Source: Escherichia coli
Lineage (GTDB): Bacteria; Pseudomonadota; Gammaproteobacteria; Enterobacterales; Enterobacteriaceae
Length of the DNA: 64,000 nt
Assembly: GCF_003991155.1 (NCBI RefSeq)
Contig: NZ_CP031293.1
Direction: 5' to 3' (one strand)
Part shown: in pieces, positions 17,562-22,535 of the stretch
Numbering within the stretch: the first letter of the stretch is position 1
How the letters are laid out: each line of letters begins with the position of its first letter
Position numbers and translations under genes: made by a program
Notes under the pieces: generated by a model
Databases searched by the model: none
Told to the model about the DNA's origin: nothing
The model's input: only the letters and a program-made list of their open reading frames with translations

Positions 17562-18524
17562 TTATTGCACGAAGCGCGAGGTCACGTACTGGCTGTAATC
17601 ATTCGCCACGGCAGGGACTTTGCCCTGATCTTTCAAAAACTGCGCGGTGTCGATGATCGCTTTGTTCACCGATCCGGTCAGTTCTGCCGTTTGCTGCTGC
17701 GGCGTCAGATAGGTATTCCCCTTCACCAGCCCCGGAACGTCACCTTCAGGCACGCCGCTTAACCGCGCCAGTTTGCTGATGTTTTCCGGCTGTTTCAGCC
17801 ACGCGTCTGGGTTAGCAATGTACGGTTGCTGAGCATCGATGGCGCTTTTAGCGAACGCTTTCACGACCTCAGGATGTTTCTCGGCAAAATCTTTGCGCAC
17901 TACCCAGACATCCAGCGTCGGCGCACCCCACTGCCCGACCTGTTCAGAATCGGTCAGCACCTTGCCGTCTTTTTCCAGGGCGTTAACCGCCGGTGCCCAG
18001 ACATAAGCACCATCAATGTCTCCCCGCTGCCATGCAGCGATAATCGCGGGCGGCTGCAGGTTCACAATCTCCACTTGCCCGGGTTTAATACCCCAGTGTT
18101 TCAGCGCCGCCAGCAGGCTGTAGTGGGTGGTGGAGATAAACGGTACGGCGATGCGCTTGCCAATCAGATCTTCCGGTTTGCTGATAGTTTTCTTCACCAC
18201 CAGCGCTTCGGAGTTACCCAGTTTTGACGCCAGCAAGAAGACTTCAATCGGCACCTGTTGGCTGGCTGCAACCGCTAACGGGCTGGAACCGAGGTTACCG
18301 ATTTGGACATCGCCTGAAGCCAGCGCCCGCACGATGCTGGCTCCGCTGTCAAACTTACGCCAGTCCACGGTTGCTCCGCTTTCTTTAGCAAAGGTGTTGT
18401 CGGCCTGAGCCACTTTCGCCGGTTCGGCTGAGGTTTGATAGGCCACGGTGACGTTCACCGCCTGTGCCTGAAAAGCGATGAATGCCAGTGCGGCAAGAAG
18501 TGTGTTACGCGATGAAATTGCCAT
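17562..18524 (-). CDS. tauA: Taurine ABC transporter periplasmic binding protein
   Basis: ORF-track frame to 18581; ATG at 18524 gives 320 aa with signal peptide MAISSRNTLLAALAFIAFQAQA. Confidence 0.9.
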   Translation of the reverse strand: MAISSRNTLLAALAFIAFQAQAVNVTVAYQTSAEPAKVAQADNTFAKESGATVDWRKFDSGASIVRALASGDVQIGNLGSSPLAVAASQQVPIEVFLLASKLGNSEALVVKKTISKPEDLIGKRIAVPFISTTHYSLLAALKHWGIKPGQVEIVNLQPPAIIAAWQRGDIDGAYVWAPAVNALEKDGKVLTDSEQVGQWGAPTLDVWVVRKDFAEKHPEVVKAFAKSAIDAQQPYIANPDAWLKQPENISKLARLSGVPEGDVPGLVKGNTYLTPQQQTAELTGSVNKAIIDTAQFLKDQGKVPAVANDYSQYVTSRFVQ

Positions 18525-18890
18525 GATTGTCTGCTCCCCTGTCTTGTTATGGGAGCAGTATTCAGGAATAAAAACATTCATTAAAAGAATTAGTCGTTAT
18601 CGCACAGATGATTTTATTCTTAGCAAAAAAACGGCAAAGGAAAGATTAAATATGCAATGACTCCGTTCTAACAATTGGGAAAATTACTACACTTCATTTT
18701 AGTGATGCATAAACAACCACATTACGAGATTTATTACTTCATTATTTCTATCAATATCAATACATATAATAAAACTATTATATTCGCATTATATATATCA
18801 CTGTATCATTCTCAATCACTCGCATATTACATTCACATAATGTATATAAACAATACTTGTTCACAGAACATATTTTTTAAATGCAATTAA

Positions 18891-18920
18891 TTGACAAACT
18901 AAATCACATCTAAATACAAT
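18891..18920 (+). promoter_or_regulatory. Candidate sigma70 promoter (TTGACA-N18-TACAAT) in the AT-rich tauA/yaiS intergenic region
   Basis: ttgaca 18891-18896, 18-bp spacer, tacaat 18915-18920; about 210 bp upstream of the yaiS start; sequence-only prediction. Confidence 0.3.
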
Positions 18921-19139
18921 GTATAAAACAAAATAACTATACATACCAAACACACAAACACTTAACATATGAATTGCATAAAAACATTAACCAGTCGCCC
19001 CCCCGGATCTGAAAGCCCTGGCTTTTCAATTATTAGCAACATTTAACACTTATAAATTAGCATCTGGCTGCGCCAGAGATTACGTCTCTGAGTGCATCGT
19101 TGTGCTTGTAGTATAATAAATAAAATGGAGTGTCATTAA

Positions 19140-19811
19140 GTGGATAAGGTTTTAGATTCAGCCCTCCTTTCTTCGGCAAATAAAAGAAAGGGTATCCTTG
19201 CTATTGGCGCACATCCTGACGATATAGAATTAGGCTGTGGCGCATCGCTTGCTCGTCTTGCGCAAAAAGGAATTTATATCGCAGCCGTGGTGATGACTAC
19301 CGGCAACTCTGGCACAGATGGAATAATCGATCGCCATGAAGAATCGCGCAACGCCCTAAAGATATTAGGGTGCCACCAAACTATTCATCTTAATTTTGCT
19401 GACACCCGCGCTCATTTACAGCTCAATGATATGATTTCCGCCCTGGAAGACATCATTAAAAATCAAATTCCGTCTGATGTAGAAATCATTCGTGTATACA
19501 CCATGCATGATGCTGACCGCCATCAGGATCATCTTGCAGTCTATCAAGCCTCAATGGTTGCCTGCCGAACTATTCCACAAATTCTCGGCTACGAAACCCC
19601 AAGTACCTGGCTTTCATTTATGCCTCAGGTTTTTGAATCCGTTAAAGAAGAATATTTCACAGTCAAACTTGCTGCATTAAAAAAACATAAAAGCCAGGAA
19701 CGACGCGATTATATGCGTCATGATCGCCTGCGTGCAGTTGCACAATTTCGCGGGCAACAGGTCAATAGCGATCTGGGTGAAGGCTTTGTAATTCATAAAA
19801 TGATTCTTTGA
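19140..19811 (+). CDS. yaiS: PIG-L/LmbE-family N-acetylglucosaminyl deacetylase-like protein
   Basis: 223 aa from GTG 19140; N-terminal ILAIGAHPDDIELGCG (PIG-L signature region); TATAAT at 19112-19117 and GGAG at 19127-19130 upstream; no signal peptide. Confidence 0.8.
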   Translation: MDKVLDSALLSSANKRKGILAIGAHPDDIELGCGASLARLAQKGIYIAAVVMTTGNSGTDGIIDRHEESRNALKILGCHQTIHLNFADTRAHLQLNDMISALEDIIKNQIPSDVEIIRVYTMHDADRHQDHLAVYQASMVACRTIPQILGYETPSTWLSFMPQVFESVKEEYFTVKLAALKKHKSQERRDYMRHDRLRAVAQFRGQQVNSDLGEGFVIHKMIL

Positions 19812-19820
19812 GCAAATTGC

Positions 19821-21017
19821 ATGAAAACCTGGATATTTATCTGTATGGCCGTAGCAATATTGCTATGGTTCCTGAGTACGTTAAGGCGTAAGCCCAGCCA
19901 AAAAAAAGGCTGTATTGACGCCATTATACCTGCGTATAACGAAGGCCCGTGTCTGGCGCAGTCACTGGATAATCTGCTGCGTAACCCTTATTTTTGCCGG
20001 GTAATTTGCGTTAACGACGGCTCCACGGACAATACCGAAGCGGTCATGGCGGAAGTCAAACGCAAATGGGGCGACCGCTTTATTGCCGTCACGCAAAAAA
20101 ATACCGGTAAAGGTGGTGCGCTGATGAATGGCCTCAATTACGCCACCTGCGACCAGGTTTTTTTAAGTGATGCCGACACCTATGTTCCGCCCGATCAAGA
20201 CGGAATGGGCTATATGCTGGCAGAAATAGAGCGCGGTGCTGATGCCGTAGGCGGCATTCCCTCTACTGCGTTGAAAGGCGCGGGTCTGTTACCGCACATC
20301 CGCGCGACCGTAAAGTTGCCGATGATTGTTATGAAGCGCACGCTACAGCAGCTCCTGGGCGGCGCACCGTTTATTATCAGCGGTGCCTGCGGGATGTTCC
20401 GTACTGATGTATTGCGTAAGTTCGGTTTCTCTGATCGTACTAAAGTCGAAGACCTTGATCTCACCTGGACATTGGTGGCAAACGGCTATCGTATTCGGCA
20501 GGCGAATCGCTGCATCGTATACCCACAGGAATGCAACAGCCCGCGTGAGGAATGGCGTCGCTGGCGGCGTTGGATTGTGGGCTACGCGGTCTGTATGCGC
20601 CTGCATAAAAGACTTTTATTTAGCCGCTTCGGTATCTTCAGTATATTTCCTATGCTGTTGGTTGTGCTTTATGGCGTTGGGATTTATCTCACTACCTGGT
20701 TTAATGAATTCATCACCACCGGGCCGCATAGTGTGGTGTTGGCAATGTTTCCGCTTATCTGGGTCGGCGTAGTTTGTGTTATTGGTGCTTTTAGCGCCTG
20801 GTTTCATCGTTGCTGGTTGTTGGTGCCTTTAGCGCCGCTTTCCGTTGTGTATGTATTATTAGCTTATGCCATCTGGATTATTTATGGACTTATTGCCTTT
20901 TTTACTGGACGCGAACCTCAGCGCGACAAACCCACCCGCTATTCCGCACTGGTGGAAGCGTCAACCGCTTATTCCCAACCTTCTGTCACAGGAACTGAAA
21001 AACTTTCTGAAGCTTAA
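19821..21017 (+). CDS. yaiP: Family-2 glycosyltransferase with N-terminal TM helix and C-terminal multi-TM region (synthase-like)
   Basis: 398 aa; N-terminal TM WIFICMAVAILLWFL, GT-A core with SDAD, EEWRRWRRW (QxxRW-like), hydrophobic C-terminal helices. Confidence 0.85.
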   Translation: MKTWIFICMAVAILLWFLSTLRRKPSQKKGCIDAIIPAYNEGPCLAQSLDNLLRNPYFCRVICVNDGSTDNTEAVMAEVKRKWGDRFIAVTQKNTGKGGALMNGLNYATCDQVFLSDADTYVPPDQDGMGYMLAEIERGADAVGGIPSTALKGAGLLPHIRATVKLPMIVMKRTLQQLLGGAPFIISGACGMFRTDVLRKFGFSDRTKVEDLDLTWTLVANGYRIRQANRCIVYPQECNSPREEWRRWRRWIVGYAVCMRLHKRLLFSRFGIFSIFPMLLVVLYGVGIYLTTWFNEFITTGPHSVVLAMFPLIWVGVVCVIGAFSAWFHRCWLLVPLAPLSVVYVLLAYAIWIIYGLIAFFTGREPQRDKPTRYSALVEASTAYSQPSVTGTEKLSEA

Positions 21018-21576
21018 TGTTAAAGAGAAAAATATTCAGATTGCAGACCAGGTAATTATTGATGAAACTGCAGGTGAAGTTGTTATCGGCGCGAATACCC
21101 GTATTTGTCACGGTGCCGTTATTCAGGGTCCGGTAGTGATTGGCGCAAACTGCCTGATAGGTAATTATGCGTTTATTCGTCCTGGCACAATAATCAGCAA
21201 TGGCGTAAAAATTGGTTTCGCCACCGAAATTAAAAATGCGGTTATTGAAGCGGAAGCAACGATTGGTCCGCAATGTTTTATTGCCGACTCGGTAGTCGCA
21301 AACCAGGCATATTTGGGCGCACAAGTACGTACCAGTAATCATCGTCTGGATGAACAGCCCGTGTCTGTTCGAACTCCAGAGGGAATTATCGCTACCGGAT
21401 GCGATAAATTAGGTTGTTATATCGGACAGCGTTCACGCCTTGGCGTACAAGTTATTATTTTGCCTGGGCGAATTATTTCCCCGAACACGCAACTTGGCCC
21501 GCGCGTGATTGTAGAACGTAATTTACCTACCGGAACTTATTCACTCCGACAAGAACTTATCCGTACAGGAGATTAA
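20866..21576 (+). CDS. yaiX: Hexapeptide-repeat (left-handed beta-helix) acyltransferase; intact; true start uncertain
   Basis: Repeats VIGANTRICHGAVIQGPVVIGANCLIGNYAFIRPGTIISNGVKIG; ATG-defined frame overlaps yaiP 3' end by about 150 nt; split by IS2 in MG1655 (from memory). Confidence 0.7.
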   Translation: MPSGLFMDLLPFLLDANLSATNPPAIPHWWKRQPLIPNLLSQELKNFLKLNVKEKNIQIADQVIIDETAGEVVIGANTRICHGAVIQGPVVIGANCLIGNYAFIRPGTIISNGVKIGFATEIKNAVIEAEATIGPQCFIADSVVANQAYLGAQVRTSNHRLDEQPVSVRTPEGIIATGCDKLGCYIGQRSRLGVQVIILPGRIISPNTQLGPRVIVERNLPTGTYSLRQELIRTGD

Positions 21577-21577
21577 A

Positions 21578-22351
21578 ATGATAAAACGGACGTTATTAGC
21601 GGCGGCCATTTTTAGCACATTGCCCGCTTATGCCGGGTTAACTTCCATTACCGCGGGCTACGATTTTACCGATTATTCTGGCGATCATGGCAATCGTAAT
21701 TTAGCGTATGCTGAACTGGTGGCGAAAGTTGAAAACGCAACGCTGCTTTTTAATCTTTCCCAGGGGCGTCGTGATTATGAAACTGAACATTTCAATGCCA
21801 CTCGCGGTCAGGGTGCGGTCTGGTATAAATGGAATAACTGGCTGACAACCCGAACGGGTATTGCCTTTGCGGATAATACGCCGGTCTTTGCCCGCCAGGA
21901 TTTTCGTCAGGATATTAACCTGGCACTGTTGCCAAAAACGCTTTTCACGACCGGTTATCGCTACACTAAATATTACGATGATGTCGAAGTCGATGCCTGG
22001 CAAGGCGGCGTATCCCTCTATACTGGCCCGGTGATCTCCAGCTACCGCTATACCCATTATGACTCCAGCGATGCAGGTGGTAGTTACAGCAATATGATTT
22101 CCGTGCGTCTGAATGACCCGCGCGGCACTGGTTATACGCAACTATGGCTAAGCCGCGGAACAGGCGCTTACACCTATGACTGGACGCCAGAAACACGCTA
22201 CGGCAGCATGAAGAGCGTCAGTTTGCAACGTATTCAACCGCTGACTGAGCAACTTAATCTCGGGCTGACGGCAGGTAAAGTGTGGTACGACACCCCAACC
22301 GATGATTATAACGGTCTGCAACTTGCAGCCCATCTGACCTGGAAATTCTAA
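21578..22351 (+). CDS. yaiO: Outer-membrane beta-barrel protein YaiO
   Basis: 257 aa; signal peptide MIKRTLLAAAIFSTLPAYA; alternating aromatic/hydrophilic pattern; C-terminal ...AAHLTWKF; starts 1 bp after yaiX stop. Confidence 0.8.
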   Translation: MIKRTLLAAAIFSTLPAYAGLTSITAGYDFTDYSGDHGNRNLAYAELVAKVENATLLFNLSQGRRDYETEHFNATRGQGAVWYKWNNWLTTRTGIAFADNTPVFARQDFRQDINLALLPKTLFTTGYRYTKYYDDVEVDAWQGGVSLYTGPVISSYRYTHYDSSDAGGSYSNMISVRLNDPRGTGYTQLWLSRGTGAYTYDWTPETRYGSMKSVSLQRIQPLTEQLNLGLTAGKVWYDTPTDDYNGLQLAAHLTWKF

Positions 22352-22460
22352 TTCCTTCTGCCGCCCGCTATCCGGGGCGGCCTTCCCTGCCGATTAGCCC
22401 CCCCTTTCCTCTTTGTTTTCCGACCACATTCACCGGATAAATTTTATTCTCCAGTGTTAT

Positions 22461-22510
22461 ATACTATAGGGGGGTATGCATTGACATATAGCATACCCCC
22501 CTATAGTATA
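22461..22510 (+). promoter_or_regulatory. frmRAB promoter embedded in FrmR operator palindrome
   Basis: Perfect 19-bp inverted repeat atactataggggggtatgc (22461-22479) / gcatacccccctatagtat (22491-22509) with G6/C6 tracts, flanking TTGACA at 22481-22486. Confidence 0.7.
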
Positions 22511-22535
22511 TTGCGTGCAGATGATGAGGTGCGAA

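Follow-up and report, generated by a model that had tools for sequence, protein, structure and literature searches.

The genes yaiS, yaiP, yaiX and yaiO lie side by side in a stretch of 64,000 nucleotides of Escherichia coli DNA (contig NZ_CP031293.1, assembly GCF_003991155.1; the whole stretch is called the window below), where they occupy positions 19140-22351 of the plus strand between tauA, which is encoded on the minus strand with an annotated start at 18524, and frmR. The region shows 100% identity with E. coli 2016C-3878, and the annotation of that identical genome was used. An initial annotation, made from the sequence alone, had described the four genes as a compact candidate module by which a surface glycan or glycolipid is made, modified and exported. 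As a candidate, this module is supported by the inheritance of the genes as a cassette, by the distribution pattern of YaiO, by the predicted fold of YaiP and by a report on clumping, and with a confidence only a little better than even we regard the cassette as an operon that makes, modifies and exports an envelope glycan of N-acetyl-hexosamine, most simply N-acetylglucosamine (GlcNAc).

The four genes are co-directional and tightly packed, as had been described: their coordinates (Table 1), the gaps of 9 bp between yaiS and yaiP (19812-19820) and of 1 bp between yaiX and yaiO (21577) and the overlap of yaiP with yaiX were all reproduced. All four open reading frames (ORFs) are intact, so that the module is indeed continuous here, and the final 152 nt of yaiP are open for yaiX in the +1 frame. 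A terminator and promoter scan revealed no convincing internal terminator or promoter within the cassette.

Table 1 Features of the yaiS-yaiP-yaiX-yaiO locus (positions in the window)
Feature	Position	Strand	Remarks
AT-rich tauA/yaiS intergenic region	18525-19139		615 bp; G+C 25-33% versus ~55% in the flanks (tauA)
yaiS	19140-19811	+	GTG start; 223 aa
ykiC-like ORF of 39 codons	19677-19796	-	antisense, within the 3' part of yaiS; annotated as hypothetical in the identical genome
yaiP	19821-21017	+	398 aa
yaiX	20866-21576	+	236 aa counted from the first ATG; 5' end overlaps yaiP
yaiO	21578-22351	+	257 aa
GC-rich hairpin	22360-22381	+	directly after yaiO; no U-tract; minimum free energy -17.1 kcal/mol, z-score -1.26

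The four genes form a rare, self-contained and horizontally mobile cassette. The YaiP family is tiny: only 46 of 1.84 billion representative proteins matched below 1e-30, mostly as fragments, after which the scores are those of generic family 2 glycosyltransferases (GT2). When one genome per bacterial and archaeal species was scanned for YaiP relatives with at least 40% identity, 13 loci were obtained. Genes for a PIG-L protein, a GT2, a beta-helix protein and YaiO follow each other in the same order in 11 of 11 proteobacterial loci, at a locus G+C content of 0.39-0.68. The hosts are two Citrobacter genomes (three loci), Superficieibacter, Candidatus Ignatzschineria, Lysobacter pythonis, Stenotrophomonas maltophilia, Pseudomonas viridiflava and three metagenome-assembled genomes, one of which is alphaproteobacterial. 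Five of the proteobacterial loci were inspected for their flanks, which consist of unrelated housekeeping genes (parE, eptA, ubiB, ettA, an aquaporin gene and a gene for a short-chain dehydrogenase/reductase) and hold no conserved extra partner such as a regulator, an enzyme of cyclic di-GMP (c-di-GMP) metabolism or a transporter. The four genes move as a unit across Gamma- and Alphaproteobacteria, onto plasmids and into a second E. coli locus, with unrelated flanks in each case. One metagenomic locus (L018) has the order O-S-P-X, i.e., YaiO, PIG-L, GT2 and beta-helix protein. In comparison with Citrobacter sp. FP75, dN/dS ratios of 0.06-0.10 were obtained for each of the four genes (in comparisons with more distant relatives the synonymous sites are saturated), and all four are thus under purifying selection. 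These ratios, together with the recurrence of the gene order in distant taxa, argue that the ORFs did not arise by chance.

Within E. coli, 4800 of 5426 complete genomes (~88%) carry the cassette at a coverage of at least 80%, and ~9% are without the locus. In about 560 E. coli genomes the match has an identity of 80-90%; four of these were examined, and in each it represents a second copy. In one of the E. coli genomes (G749; L002, 7965-11171) this second copy is located in an island close to cobU/cobS, ibrA/ibrB-like genes and a gene for a TonB-dependent receptor; strain 83972 has the cassette at two places. Sliding-window comparison of the second with the tauA-linked copy gave 60-75% identity for yaiS and 95-99% for yaiP-yaiX-yaiO, so that the second copy is a mosaic, which suggests that the two loci have recombined. 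Citrobacter braakii ATCC 51113 likewise has two diverged whole cassettes on two contigs (L020 and L023), with ~75% and ~66% nucleotide identity to the window, a two-copy state that parallels that of some E. coli strains. About 50 true plasmid records contain the cassette, mostly conjugative IncF plasmids; a few further "plasmid" records are mislabelled chromosomes. On the IncF plasmid NZ_AP024124.1 of a bovine E. coli isolate (L099, 6953-10151), for example, a cassette of ~90% identity is found ~4 kb from cnf2, the gene for a cytotoxic necrotizing factor. On metagenome and Salmonella contigs the four genes are accompanied by plasmid genes (Rep, CcdAB, resolvase), PapB-like regulators or fimbrial genes, and PapB-like or response-regulator genes are located upstream only in some of the plasmid and metagenome copies. 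In the plasmid-like contigs of Salmonella (L009, 3208-3498; L010, 1480-1782; L013, 9651-11803) a gene for a PapB-family regulator precedes the cassette, or genes for a fimbrial subunit, CcdAB or Rep are nearby, which hints at co-regulation of the cassette with adhesins on these replicons.

Outside the Proteobacteria, the cassette occurs in Clostridia in a different version. The three loci found there (L030, L031 and L016, from Herbivorax, Anaerosolibacter and a metagenome contig of 32% G+C) encode the PIG-L, GT2 and beta-helix proteins and lack yaiO. YaiO therefore tracks the outer membrane: every diderm locus found has it and the clostridial loci do not. Two of the three (L031 and L016) have a gene for a membrane-anchored polysaccharide deacetylase of carbohydrate esterase family 4 (CE4) with TFDDG and HTVHH motifs directly after the beta-helix gene and, upstream and divergently oriented, a gene for a secreted or anchored endo-beta-glycanase of glycoside hydrolase family 16 (GH16). 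CE4 and GH16 proteins are accessory enzymes typical of exopolysaccharide loci. In these two hosts without an outer membrane, the cassette has thus gained enzymes for acetylated polysaccharides that are placed outside the cytoplasm.

YaiS can be assigned from its sequence to the cytoplasmic zinc de-N-acetylases of the PIG-L/LmbE family, in agreement with the initial annotation: it matches PF02585 (E 6e-25, Pfam), keeps the residues of the zinc site and has no signal peptide. The stretches H25-P26-D27-D28 and H128-Q-D130-H131, which correspond to the AHPDD and HxDH metal/base motifs, do not vary among 20 members of the family. Among curated families the best is BshB1, the bacillithiol deacetylase, with 80 bits against a cut-off of 182, so that the subfamily cut-off is missed; the best solved structure is an archaeal diacetylchitobiose deacetylase (8bgn), which matches over the full length with E 4e-12. 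By family and by structure, the closest relatives of YaiS are thus de-N-acetylases of GlcNAc glycosides. PIG-L enzymes typically de-N-acetylate GlcNAc that is already joined to a small or lipid acceptor.

YaiP belongs to the GT2 families of Pfam, with a match to Glyco_transf_21 at E 1e-7. Its best curated family is PgaC_IcaA (TIGR03937), and because the score of 100.7 bits is far below the cut-off of 422.3, YaiP is a relative rather than an orthologue of PgaC/IcaA; the NodC model gave 29.5 bits against a cut-off of 550 and covered the N-terminal part only. The AlphaFold2 model (predicted local distance difference test score (pLDDT) 86) starts with a transmembrane helix, behind which comes a positively charged stretch; the GT-A domain is next, then a helix (residues 241-261) that carries R247-W-R-R-W251, and the C-terminal part has three hydrophobic helices, a conserved FTGREPxRDKPTRY motif and a disordered tail. 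This bears out the N-terminal helix and the C-terminal multi-helix region proposed before. Since the positively charged stretch follows the N-terminal transmembrane helix, we infer from the positive-inside rule that the glycosyltransferase domain faces the cytoplasm. The motifs SDAD (DAD at 117-119) and EEWRRWRRW were both found, and two alignments, of 29 and of 9 sequences, show no variation at D66, D117-A-D119, E210-D211 and R250-W251. The likeness to the QxxRW motif of processive synthases held for the RW pair, which is invariant and located on the interface helix, but not for the first position, which is R or K in the family where the synthase consensus has Q, so that the signature reads R-x-x-R-W.

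A Foldseek search of the Protein Data Bank (PDB) with the YaiP model retrieved as best matches the whole Xenopus HAS1 and Chlorella-virus hyaluronan synthases (query TM-score (TMq) 0.67-0.68 over ~420 columns); BcsA also matched, and the polyprenyl-phosphate transferases GtrB and ArnC reached a TMq of only 0.35-0.39. Outside its own family, the neighbours of YaiP in the AlphaFold database comprise proteins resembling the synthases of poly-N-acetylglucosamine (PNAG) or cellulose, GT2-CE4 fusions and beta-monoglucosyldiacylglycerol synthases (TM-score 0.73-0.74). The modelling that had been proposed as a check on the synthase assignment thus returned a synthase fold, with hyaluronan synthases on top and GtrB and ArnC poor, but also a count of about four transmembrane helices and a mixed set of database neighbours. 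Judged from the model, YaiP is a membrane-integrated GT2 with synthase architecture, a fold that does not by itself settle processivity. Two unusual relatives may be mentioned here. P0084 (L018, 1790-3493; 567 aa) has an extra C-terminal domain of ~180 aa after the FTGREPxRDKPTRY motif, which matches no recognised family. In P0091, a relative of 379 aa from a Logan assembly, the exchanges relative to YaiP are systematic (A>V, P>L, R>C/W, T>I/M, S>F/L, H>Y) and correspond to every C being read as T; the sequence almost certainly stems from bisulfite-converted DNA and is not a real variant.

YaiX had been described as a hexapeptide-repeat acyltransferase, and its membership in the Hexapep and LbH families of Pfam and its homology to the C-terminal domain of GlmU agree with this. 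It matches the archaeal GlmU C-terminal domain family TIGR03992 with 130 bits (E 9e-38) in the acetyltransferase part only, and the best solved structure is that of Sulfolobus ST0452 (PDB 5z09, E 9e-23). On this homology YaiX is predicted to be a cytoplasmic acyltransferase-like protein with a left-handed beta-helix (hexapeptide) fold. Fourteen polar residues are invariant in the family (R105, E121, K123, D141, S142, R155, T156, S157, N158, K181, R202, N219, Y225 and Q229). YaiX resembles enzymes that N-acylate glucosamine (GlcN) 1-phosphate or UDP-GlcN derivatives. Since PIG-L proteins act on attached GlcNAc and YaiX resembles N-acyltransferases of GlcN derivatives, YaiS and YaiX look like an N-acyl exchange pair by analogy.

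The 5' end of yaiX deserves a correction. The N-terminus of the family reads M/V-W-W or M-x-x-x-W-W in all members, also where the beta-helix and glycosyltransferase genes do not overlap. The corresponding codons of E. coli yaiX (W29-W30, 20950-20955) are located inside yaiP and are preceded by CAC instead of ATG. The annotated starts, CTG 20995 and, in B2 strains, GTG 21052, both drop the conserved WW motif and are probably wrong. Because WW is conserved and no ATG directly precedes it, translation would begin further upstream, the probable start being ATG 20866 or ATG 20884. Codons 1-348 of YaiP show a proportion of synonymous differences (pS) of 0.69 and of nonsynonymous differences (pN) of 0.08 against Citrobacter sp. 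FP75, whereas in codons 377-398 pS (0.17) is smaller than pN (0.23); a pS below pN in these codons, seen in the comparisons with Citrobacter and Superficieibacter, therefore indicates that the yaiX frame constrains them. That the overlap is 100% identical between the tauA-linked and the second E. coli copy was dropped as evidence for dual coding, as the whole of yaiP-yaiX-yaiO is 95-99% identical. A fusion of YaiP and YaiX or a frameshift between them was also rejected: P0084 ends in an unrelated domain and its gene is followed by a separate beta-helix gene, and relatives with non-overlapping genes exist. Neither ATG 20866 nor ATG 20884 is preceded by a Shine-Dalgarno sequence, and the absence of such a sequence from yaiX was also stated in a recent paper (PMC13058169, 2026). 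In the same study, overexpression of a 71-aa fragment of K-12 YaiX led to multidrug tolerance and silkworm virulence, and the full form of 236 aa was weaker (PMC13058169). As the phenotype comes from a plasmid-made, truncated beta-helix fragment and is weaker with the full form, it was regarded as uninformative for the native function of YaiX.

The proposed outer-membrane barrel YaiO has the expected features, namely a Sec signal peptide, a C-terminal Phe and an AlphaFold2 model (pLDDT 89) of a 14-stranded beta-barrel. It matches TIGR04390 (PF19413 family) with 183.9 bits against a cut-off of 32 over profile positions 1-230 of 230. Among solved barrels OmpG is the best match to the model (TM-score 0.68), and the PgaA barrel (4y25) is ninth (0.57); a sequence search against solved structures gave nothing below E 1.

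In the automatic annotation of the identical genome, yaiS is a truncated pseudogene (19140-19502). This call is an annotation artefact, as the yaiS ORF is full-length and PIG-L relatives can be aligned with it from end to end; the product has 223 aa in the window, MB19 and 83972, and 220 aa in the second-locus copy. The call probably arose from the small antisense ORF in the 3' end of yaiS, whose product matches K-12 YkiC at 38 of 39 residues; YkiC is a small protein of K-12 (PMC6001520). K-12 itself (strain C600) is a double mutant of the operon. The disruption by IS2 that had been noted for K-12 was seen in C600, where the element splits yaiX, and codon 186 of yaiS (L003, 861-1418) is TAG where the window and other strains have CAG (Q186*, equivalent to 19695-19697 of the window), so that YaiS is cut to 185 aa. 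With both lesions, K-12 cannot make the product. Independent insertions are present in the cassettes of further E. coli genomes, with ISEc20 plus IS1 in H6, IS1 in H17 and IS2 in H11/H12. Because separate strains carry independent insertions, the locus has been repeatedly inactivated, yet it is widely conserved.

The AT-rich region upstream of yaiS, which had been noted before, was confirmed in its size and low G+C content (Table 1) and is probably a regulatory and silencing region. It contains one near-consensus sigma-70-like site, TTGACA-18-TACAAT at 18891-18920 of the plus strand, which matches at 11 of 12 positions. For K-12, the counterpart of the region appears among the "promoter islands" of a table that belongs to a section about the binding of H-NS; we read its row as an association with H-NS (PMC3661553). 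At the other end of the cassette, the GC-rich hairpin directly after yaiO might be a weak terminator or an RNA end; it was not called as a terminator, as its z-score is unremarkable, a U-tract is lacking and the terminator scan missed it. Further downstream, a frmR promoter-like site (22481-22509) is overlapped by a long perfect palindrome at 22455-22512 (TATACTATAGGGGGGTATGC ... GCATACCCCCCTATAGTATA), which presumably is the FrmR operator.

If the cassette directs the synthesis of an envelope glycan, YaiP would be an inner-membrane protein whose GT-A domain faces the cytoplasm, and it would polymerise a sugar from its UDP derivative, as the synthases of hyaluronan, PNAG, chitin and cellulose do. 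It would probably also carry the product across the inner membrane, because no flippase, ABC transporter or other partner is co-inherited in the flanks of the five proteobacterial loci. YaiS and YaiX would act as a cytoplasmic pair, the former removing an N-acetyl group and the latter re-acylating or capping the freed amine, either on a donor or primer sugar before polymerisation or at the non-reducing end of the chain. YaiO would provide the passage through, or the anchor in, the outer membrane. The operon would normally be kept silent via the AT-rich, H-NS-bound upstream region, and its expression would cause cells to adhere to each other. Within this scheme we infer the substrate, the processivity, the translocation, the sequence in which YaiS and YaiX act, the pore function of YaiO and the control by H-NS in this strain. 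A phenotype is on record in EcoGene 3.0, which states with reference to a 2011 meeting abstract that repair of K-12 yaiX "facilitates clumping during vegetative growth", an effect for which YaiP is needed (PMC3531124).

Several points weigh against this interpretation. The sole phenotype for the cassette is that of the meeting abstract, as relayed by EcoGene, and the searchable literature assigns no product to the cassette, as the initial annotation had already stated. From the cytoplasm, YaiS and YaiX have no access to a polymer whose extrusion accompanies its synthesis, and a simple model of secretion followed by modification does not account for their location. The fold of YaiP cannot separate a polymer synthase from a lipid glycosyltransferase, because its AlphaFold-database neighbours include both. 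YaiP has only about four transmembrane helices, one N-terminal and three C-terminal, and BcsA and the hyaluronan synthases have more; PgaC/IcaA, which are similarly small, depend on a small partner protein, and NodC is not known to export what it makes. The R at the first position of the YaiP motif resembles the situation in non-processive lipid glucosyltransferases of glycosyltransferase family 21 (GT21). Receptors of c-di-GMP of the PilZ, PgaD, Alg44 or PelD type were found neither in the four proteins nor in the conserved neighbourhood. In YaiX, P135-Q-C-F occupies the position of H-L-S-Y of ST0452 in a gap-free pairwise alignment, and the 19 sequences of the YaiX family share no invariant histidine; the histidine of H-L-S-Y is the catalytic residue, H308 in ST0452 and H363 in GlmU. 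YaiX could still be an active acyltransferase, since sugar N-acetyltransferases that lack a catalytic base are known, such as QdtC and WlbB, and these two are among its weaker PDB matches. The structural matches of YaiO are generic, with identities of 8-14%, the protein has no tetratricopeptide repeat (TPR) domain, and no TPR-fused relatives, which would parallel PgaA and BcsC, were found in searches that rely on shared words and that distant members may escape. Finally, the three clostridial YaiP proteins are ~70% identical, and the association with CE4 and GH16 enzymes therefore counts as one lineage.

A serious rival, though in our view an unlikely one, is a glycolipid pathway. Here YaiP would add one GlcNAc to a lipid (diacylglycerol, polyprenyl phosphate or another), YaiS would de-N-acetylate it at the cytoplasmic face, YaiX would N-acylate the amine and YaiO would aid the lipid into the outer membrane. 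There are precedents for such a sequence, as PIG-L de-N-acetylates a GlcNAc-lipid in the synthesis of glycosylphosphatidylinositol and HpnK does so in hopanoid synthesis after the GT2 HpnI has acted, and the nearest relatives of YaiS fit an action of PIG-L type on acceptor-linked GlcNAc. Two cytoplasmic modifying enzymes would also suit a membrane-bound monosaccharide. For YaiP, the (Q/R)xxRW signature with R in first position, which is known from the GT21 ceramide glucosyltransferases, the Glyco_transf_21 match, the monoglucosyldiacylglycerol synthases among the structural neighbours and the small number of transmembrane helices all agree with a lipid acceptor, but the best structural matches are processive synthases, and the single-transfer GT2s acting on polyprenyl phosphate fit much more poorly. 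Moreover, the clostridial cassettes add an extracytoplasmic CE4 and a GH16 endo-glycanase, which act on polymers, no lipid flippase or Lpt/Mla-like component is co-inherited in the flanks of the five loci, and YaiO, a 14-stranded barrel without a hatch and without detectable relation to FadL, is not an obvious lipid exporter.

Quite improbable is a pathway similar to that of Nod factors, in which YaiP would make a short GlcNAc oligomer that is kept at the cytoplasmic face, deacetylated at its non-reducing end by YaiS, as by NodB or diacetylchitobiose deacetylase, acylated at the amine by YaiX in the role of NodA and released through an OmpG-like YaiO. In size and topology (398 aa, 1 + 3 transmembrane helices) YaiP is nearer to NodC than to BcsA, but the NodC model is missed by a wide margin and aligns with the N-terminal part only. 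The closest solved relative of YaiS, diacetylchitobiose deacetylase, and the combination of a cytoplasmic deacetylase with an acyltransferase correspond to the tailoring logic of Nod factors and teicoplanin; the best YaiO match, OmpG, and CymA, which is among the better ones, are 14-stranded monomeric barrels that pass oligosaccharides. An inner-membrane exporter equivalent to NodIJ, however, is not co-inherited in the flanks of the five loci, and clumping and the GH16 and CE4 partners suit a surface polymer better than a diffusible signal. That the locus is decaying cargo, a silenced acquired remnant in which the juxtaposition of genes says nothing of present activity, could be read from the AT-rich upstream region that is H-NS-associated in K-12, the two inactivating lesions in K-12, the IS1, IS2 and ISEc20 insertions in several genomes, the ~9% of genomes without the locus and the missing Shine-Dalgarno sequence of yaiX (PMC13058169), but is contradicted by the dN/dS values of all four genes, the intact state of the locus in 88% of complete genomes, the invariant catalytic residues and the re-acquisition of the cassette on plasmids and in a second island, and we consider it extremely improbable.

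The individual genes, a "yaiX operon" in databases and a mention of the phenotype were already known. New are the recognition of a mobile, self-contained cassette with diderm and monoderm variants and a conserved cytoplasmic editing pair, and the corrected models of yaiS and yaiX. If the cassette, which is present in ~88% of complete E. coli genomes and on conjugative plasmids of the virulence type, indeed makes a surface glycan, this glycan would be a so far neglected factor in aggregation, biofilm formation, recognition by phages or the immune system, and colonisation in the best-studied bacterium. A universal cytoplasmic deacetylase/acyltransferase pair and a minimal outer-membrane barrel would be new design features for synthase-type systems, and the intact four-gene unit, the probable start region of yaiX, the conserved residues as targets for mutation and the natural variants (diderm with YaiO, monoderm with CE4 and GH16) make this orphan system experimentally tractable. 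A bolder proposal, whose chances we put well short of even, is that the cassette represents a fourth kind of synthase-type exopolysaccharide system in E. coli and scattered other bacteria. A cytoplasmic PIG-L deacetylase and a beta-helix acyltransferase without histidine would swap the N-acyl group on the hexosamine or chain end ahead of export by a minimal GT2 synthase, a stand-alone, TPR-less barrel of 14 strands would take the product across the outer membrane, and the result would be a chemically new N-acylated polyglucosamine adhesin. The two lesions of K-12 and the silencing of the operon by H-NS would explain why such an adhesin had escaped notice for decades.

Among known systems, the cassette resembles the synthase-dependent exopolysaccharide systems and is a member of no named one, since the PgaC and NodC cut-offs are missed and PgaD/IcaD, a c-di-GMP receptor and a TPR scaffold are lacking. 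With PgaABCD/IcaADBC it has in common a small membrane GT2 synthase (PgaC/IcaA being the best curated match of YaiP), de-N-acetylation of a GlcNAc product, an operon-encoded outer-membrane barrel, for which PgaA is a structural match, and an aggregation phenotype. In contrast to these systems, it has no PgaD/IcaD partner, no c-di-GMP element and no extracytoplasmic CE4 protein corresponding to PgaB/IcaB; its deacetylase is a cytoplasmic PIG-L protein where PgaB is a periplasmic CE4 enzyme, a beta-helix acyltransferase is added, and YaiO has 14 strands and no TPR, whereas PgaA has 16 strands and TPR repeats. The class I hyaluronan synthases of Chlorella virus and Xenopus (HAS1) and BcsA share with YaiP the D, DxD, ED and xxRW motifs, the last one on the interface helix, and match the whole chain. 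They combine synthesis and translocation in one protein, as YaiP may do by way of a putative channel, and differ from it by an identity of 14-17%, by more transmembrane helices than the ~4 of YaiP and by Q in place of R.

The cytoplasmic de-N-acetylation of GlcNAc followed by re-acylation of the amine is known from NodC-NodB-NodA, LpxC-LpxD and the teicoplanin enzymes Orf2*/Orf11*. NodC is a membrane GT2 of the size of YaiP, LpxD represents the beta-helix N-acyltransferases and Orf2* the PIG-L family of deacetylases; on the other hand, NodB belongs to CE4, NodA has no beta-helix fold, LpxC does not belong to the PIG-L family, and the cassette has no gene for an acyl donor or carrier. ST0452 and archaeal GlmU share with YaiX the beta-helix fold and the N158-x-R160-x-D162 stretch, but YaiX lacks the nucleotidyltransferase domain and the catalytic histidine and has the N-terminal WW segment instead. 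The last comparison is with NfrB-NfrA-YbcH, the exopolysaccharide system of E. coli that provides the receptor of phage N4. NfrB has a c-di-GMP-binding domain, NfrA is a large TPR-barrel protein and PIG-L or beta-helix enzymes are not part of that system, but it likewise consists of a small E. coli GT2 synthase and an outer-membrane protein and makes an N-acetyl-hexosamine polymer that was long overlooked.

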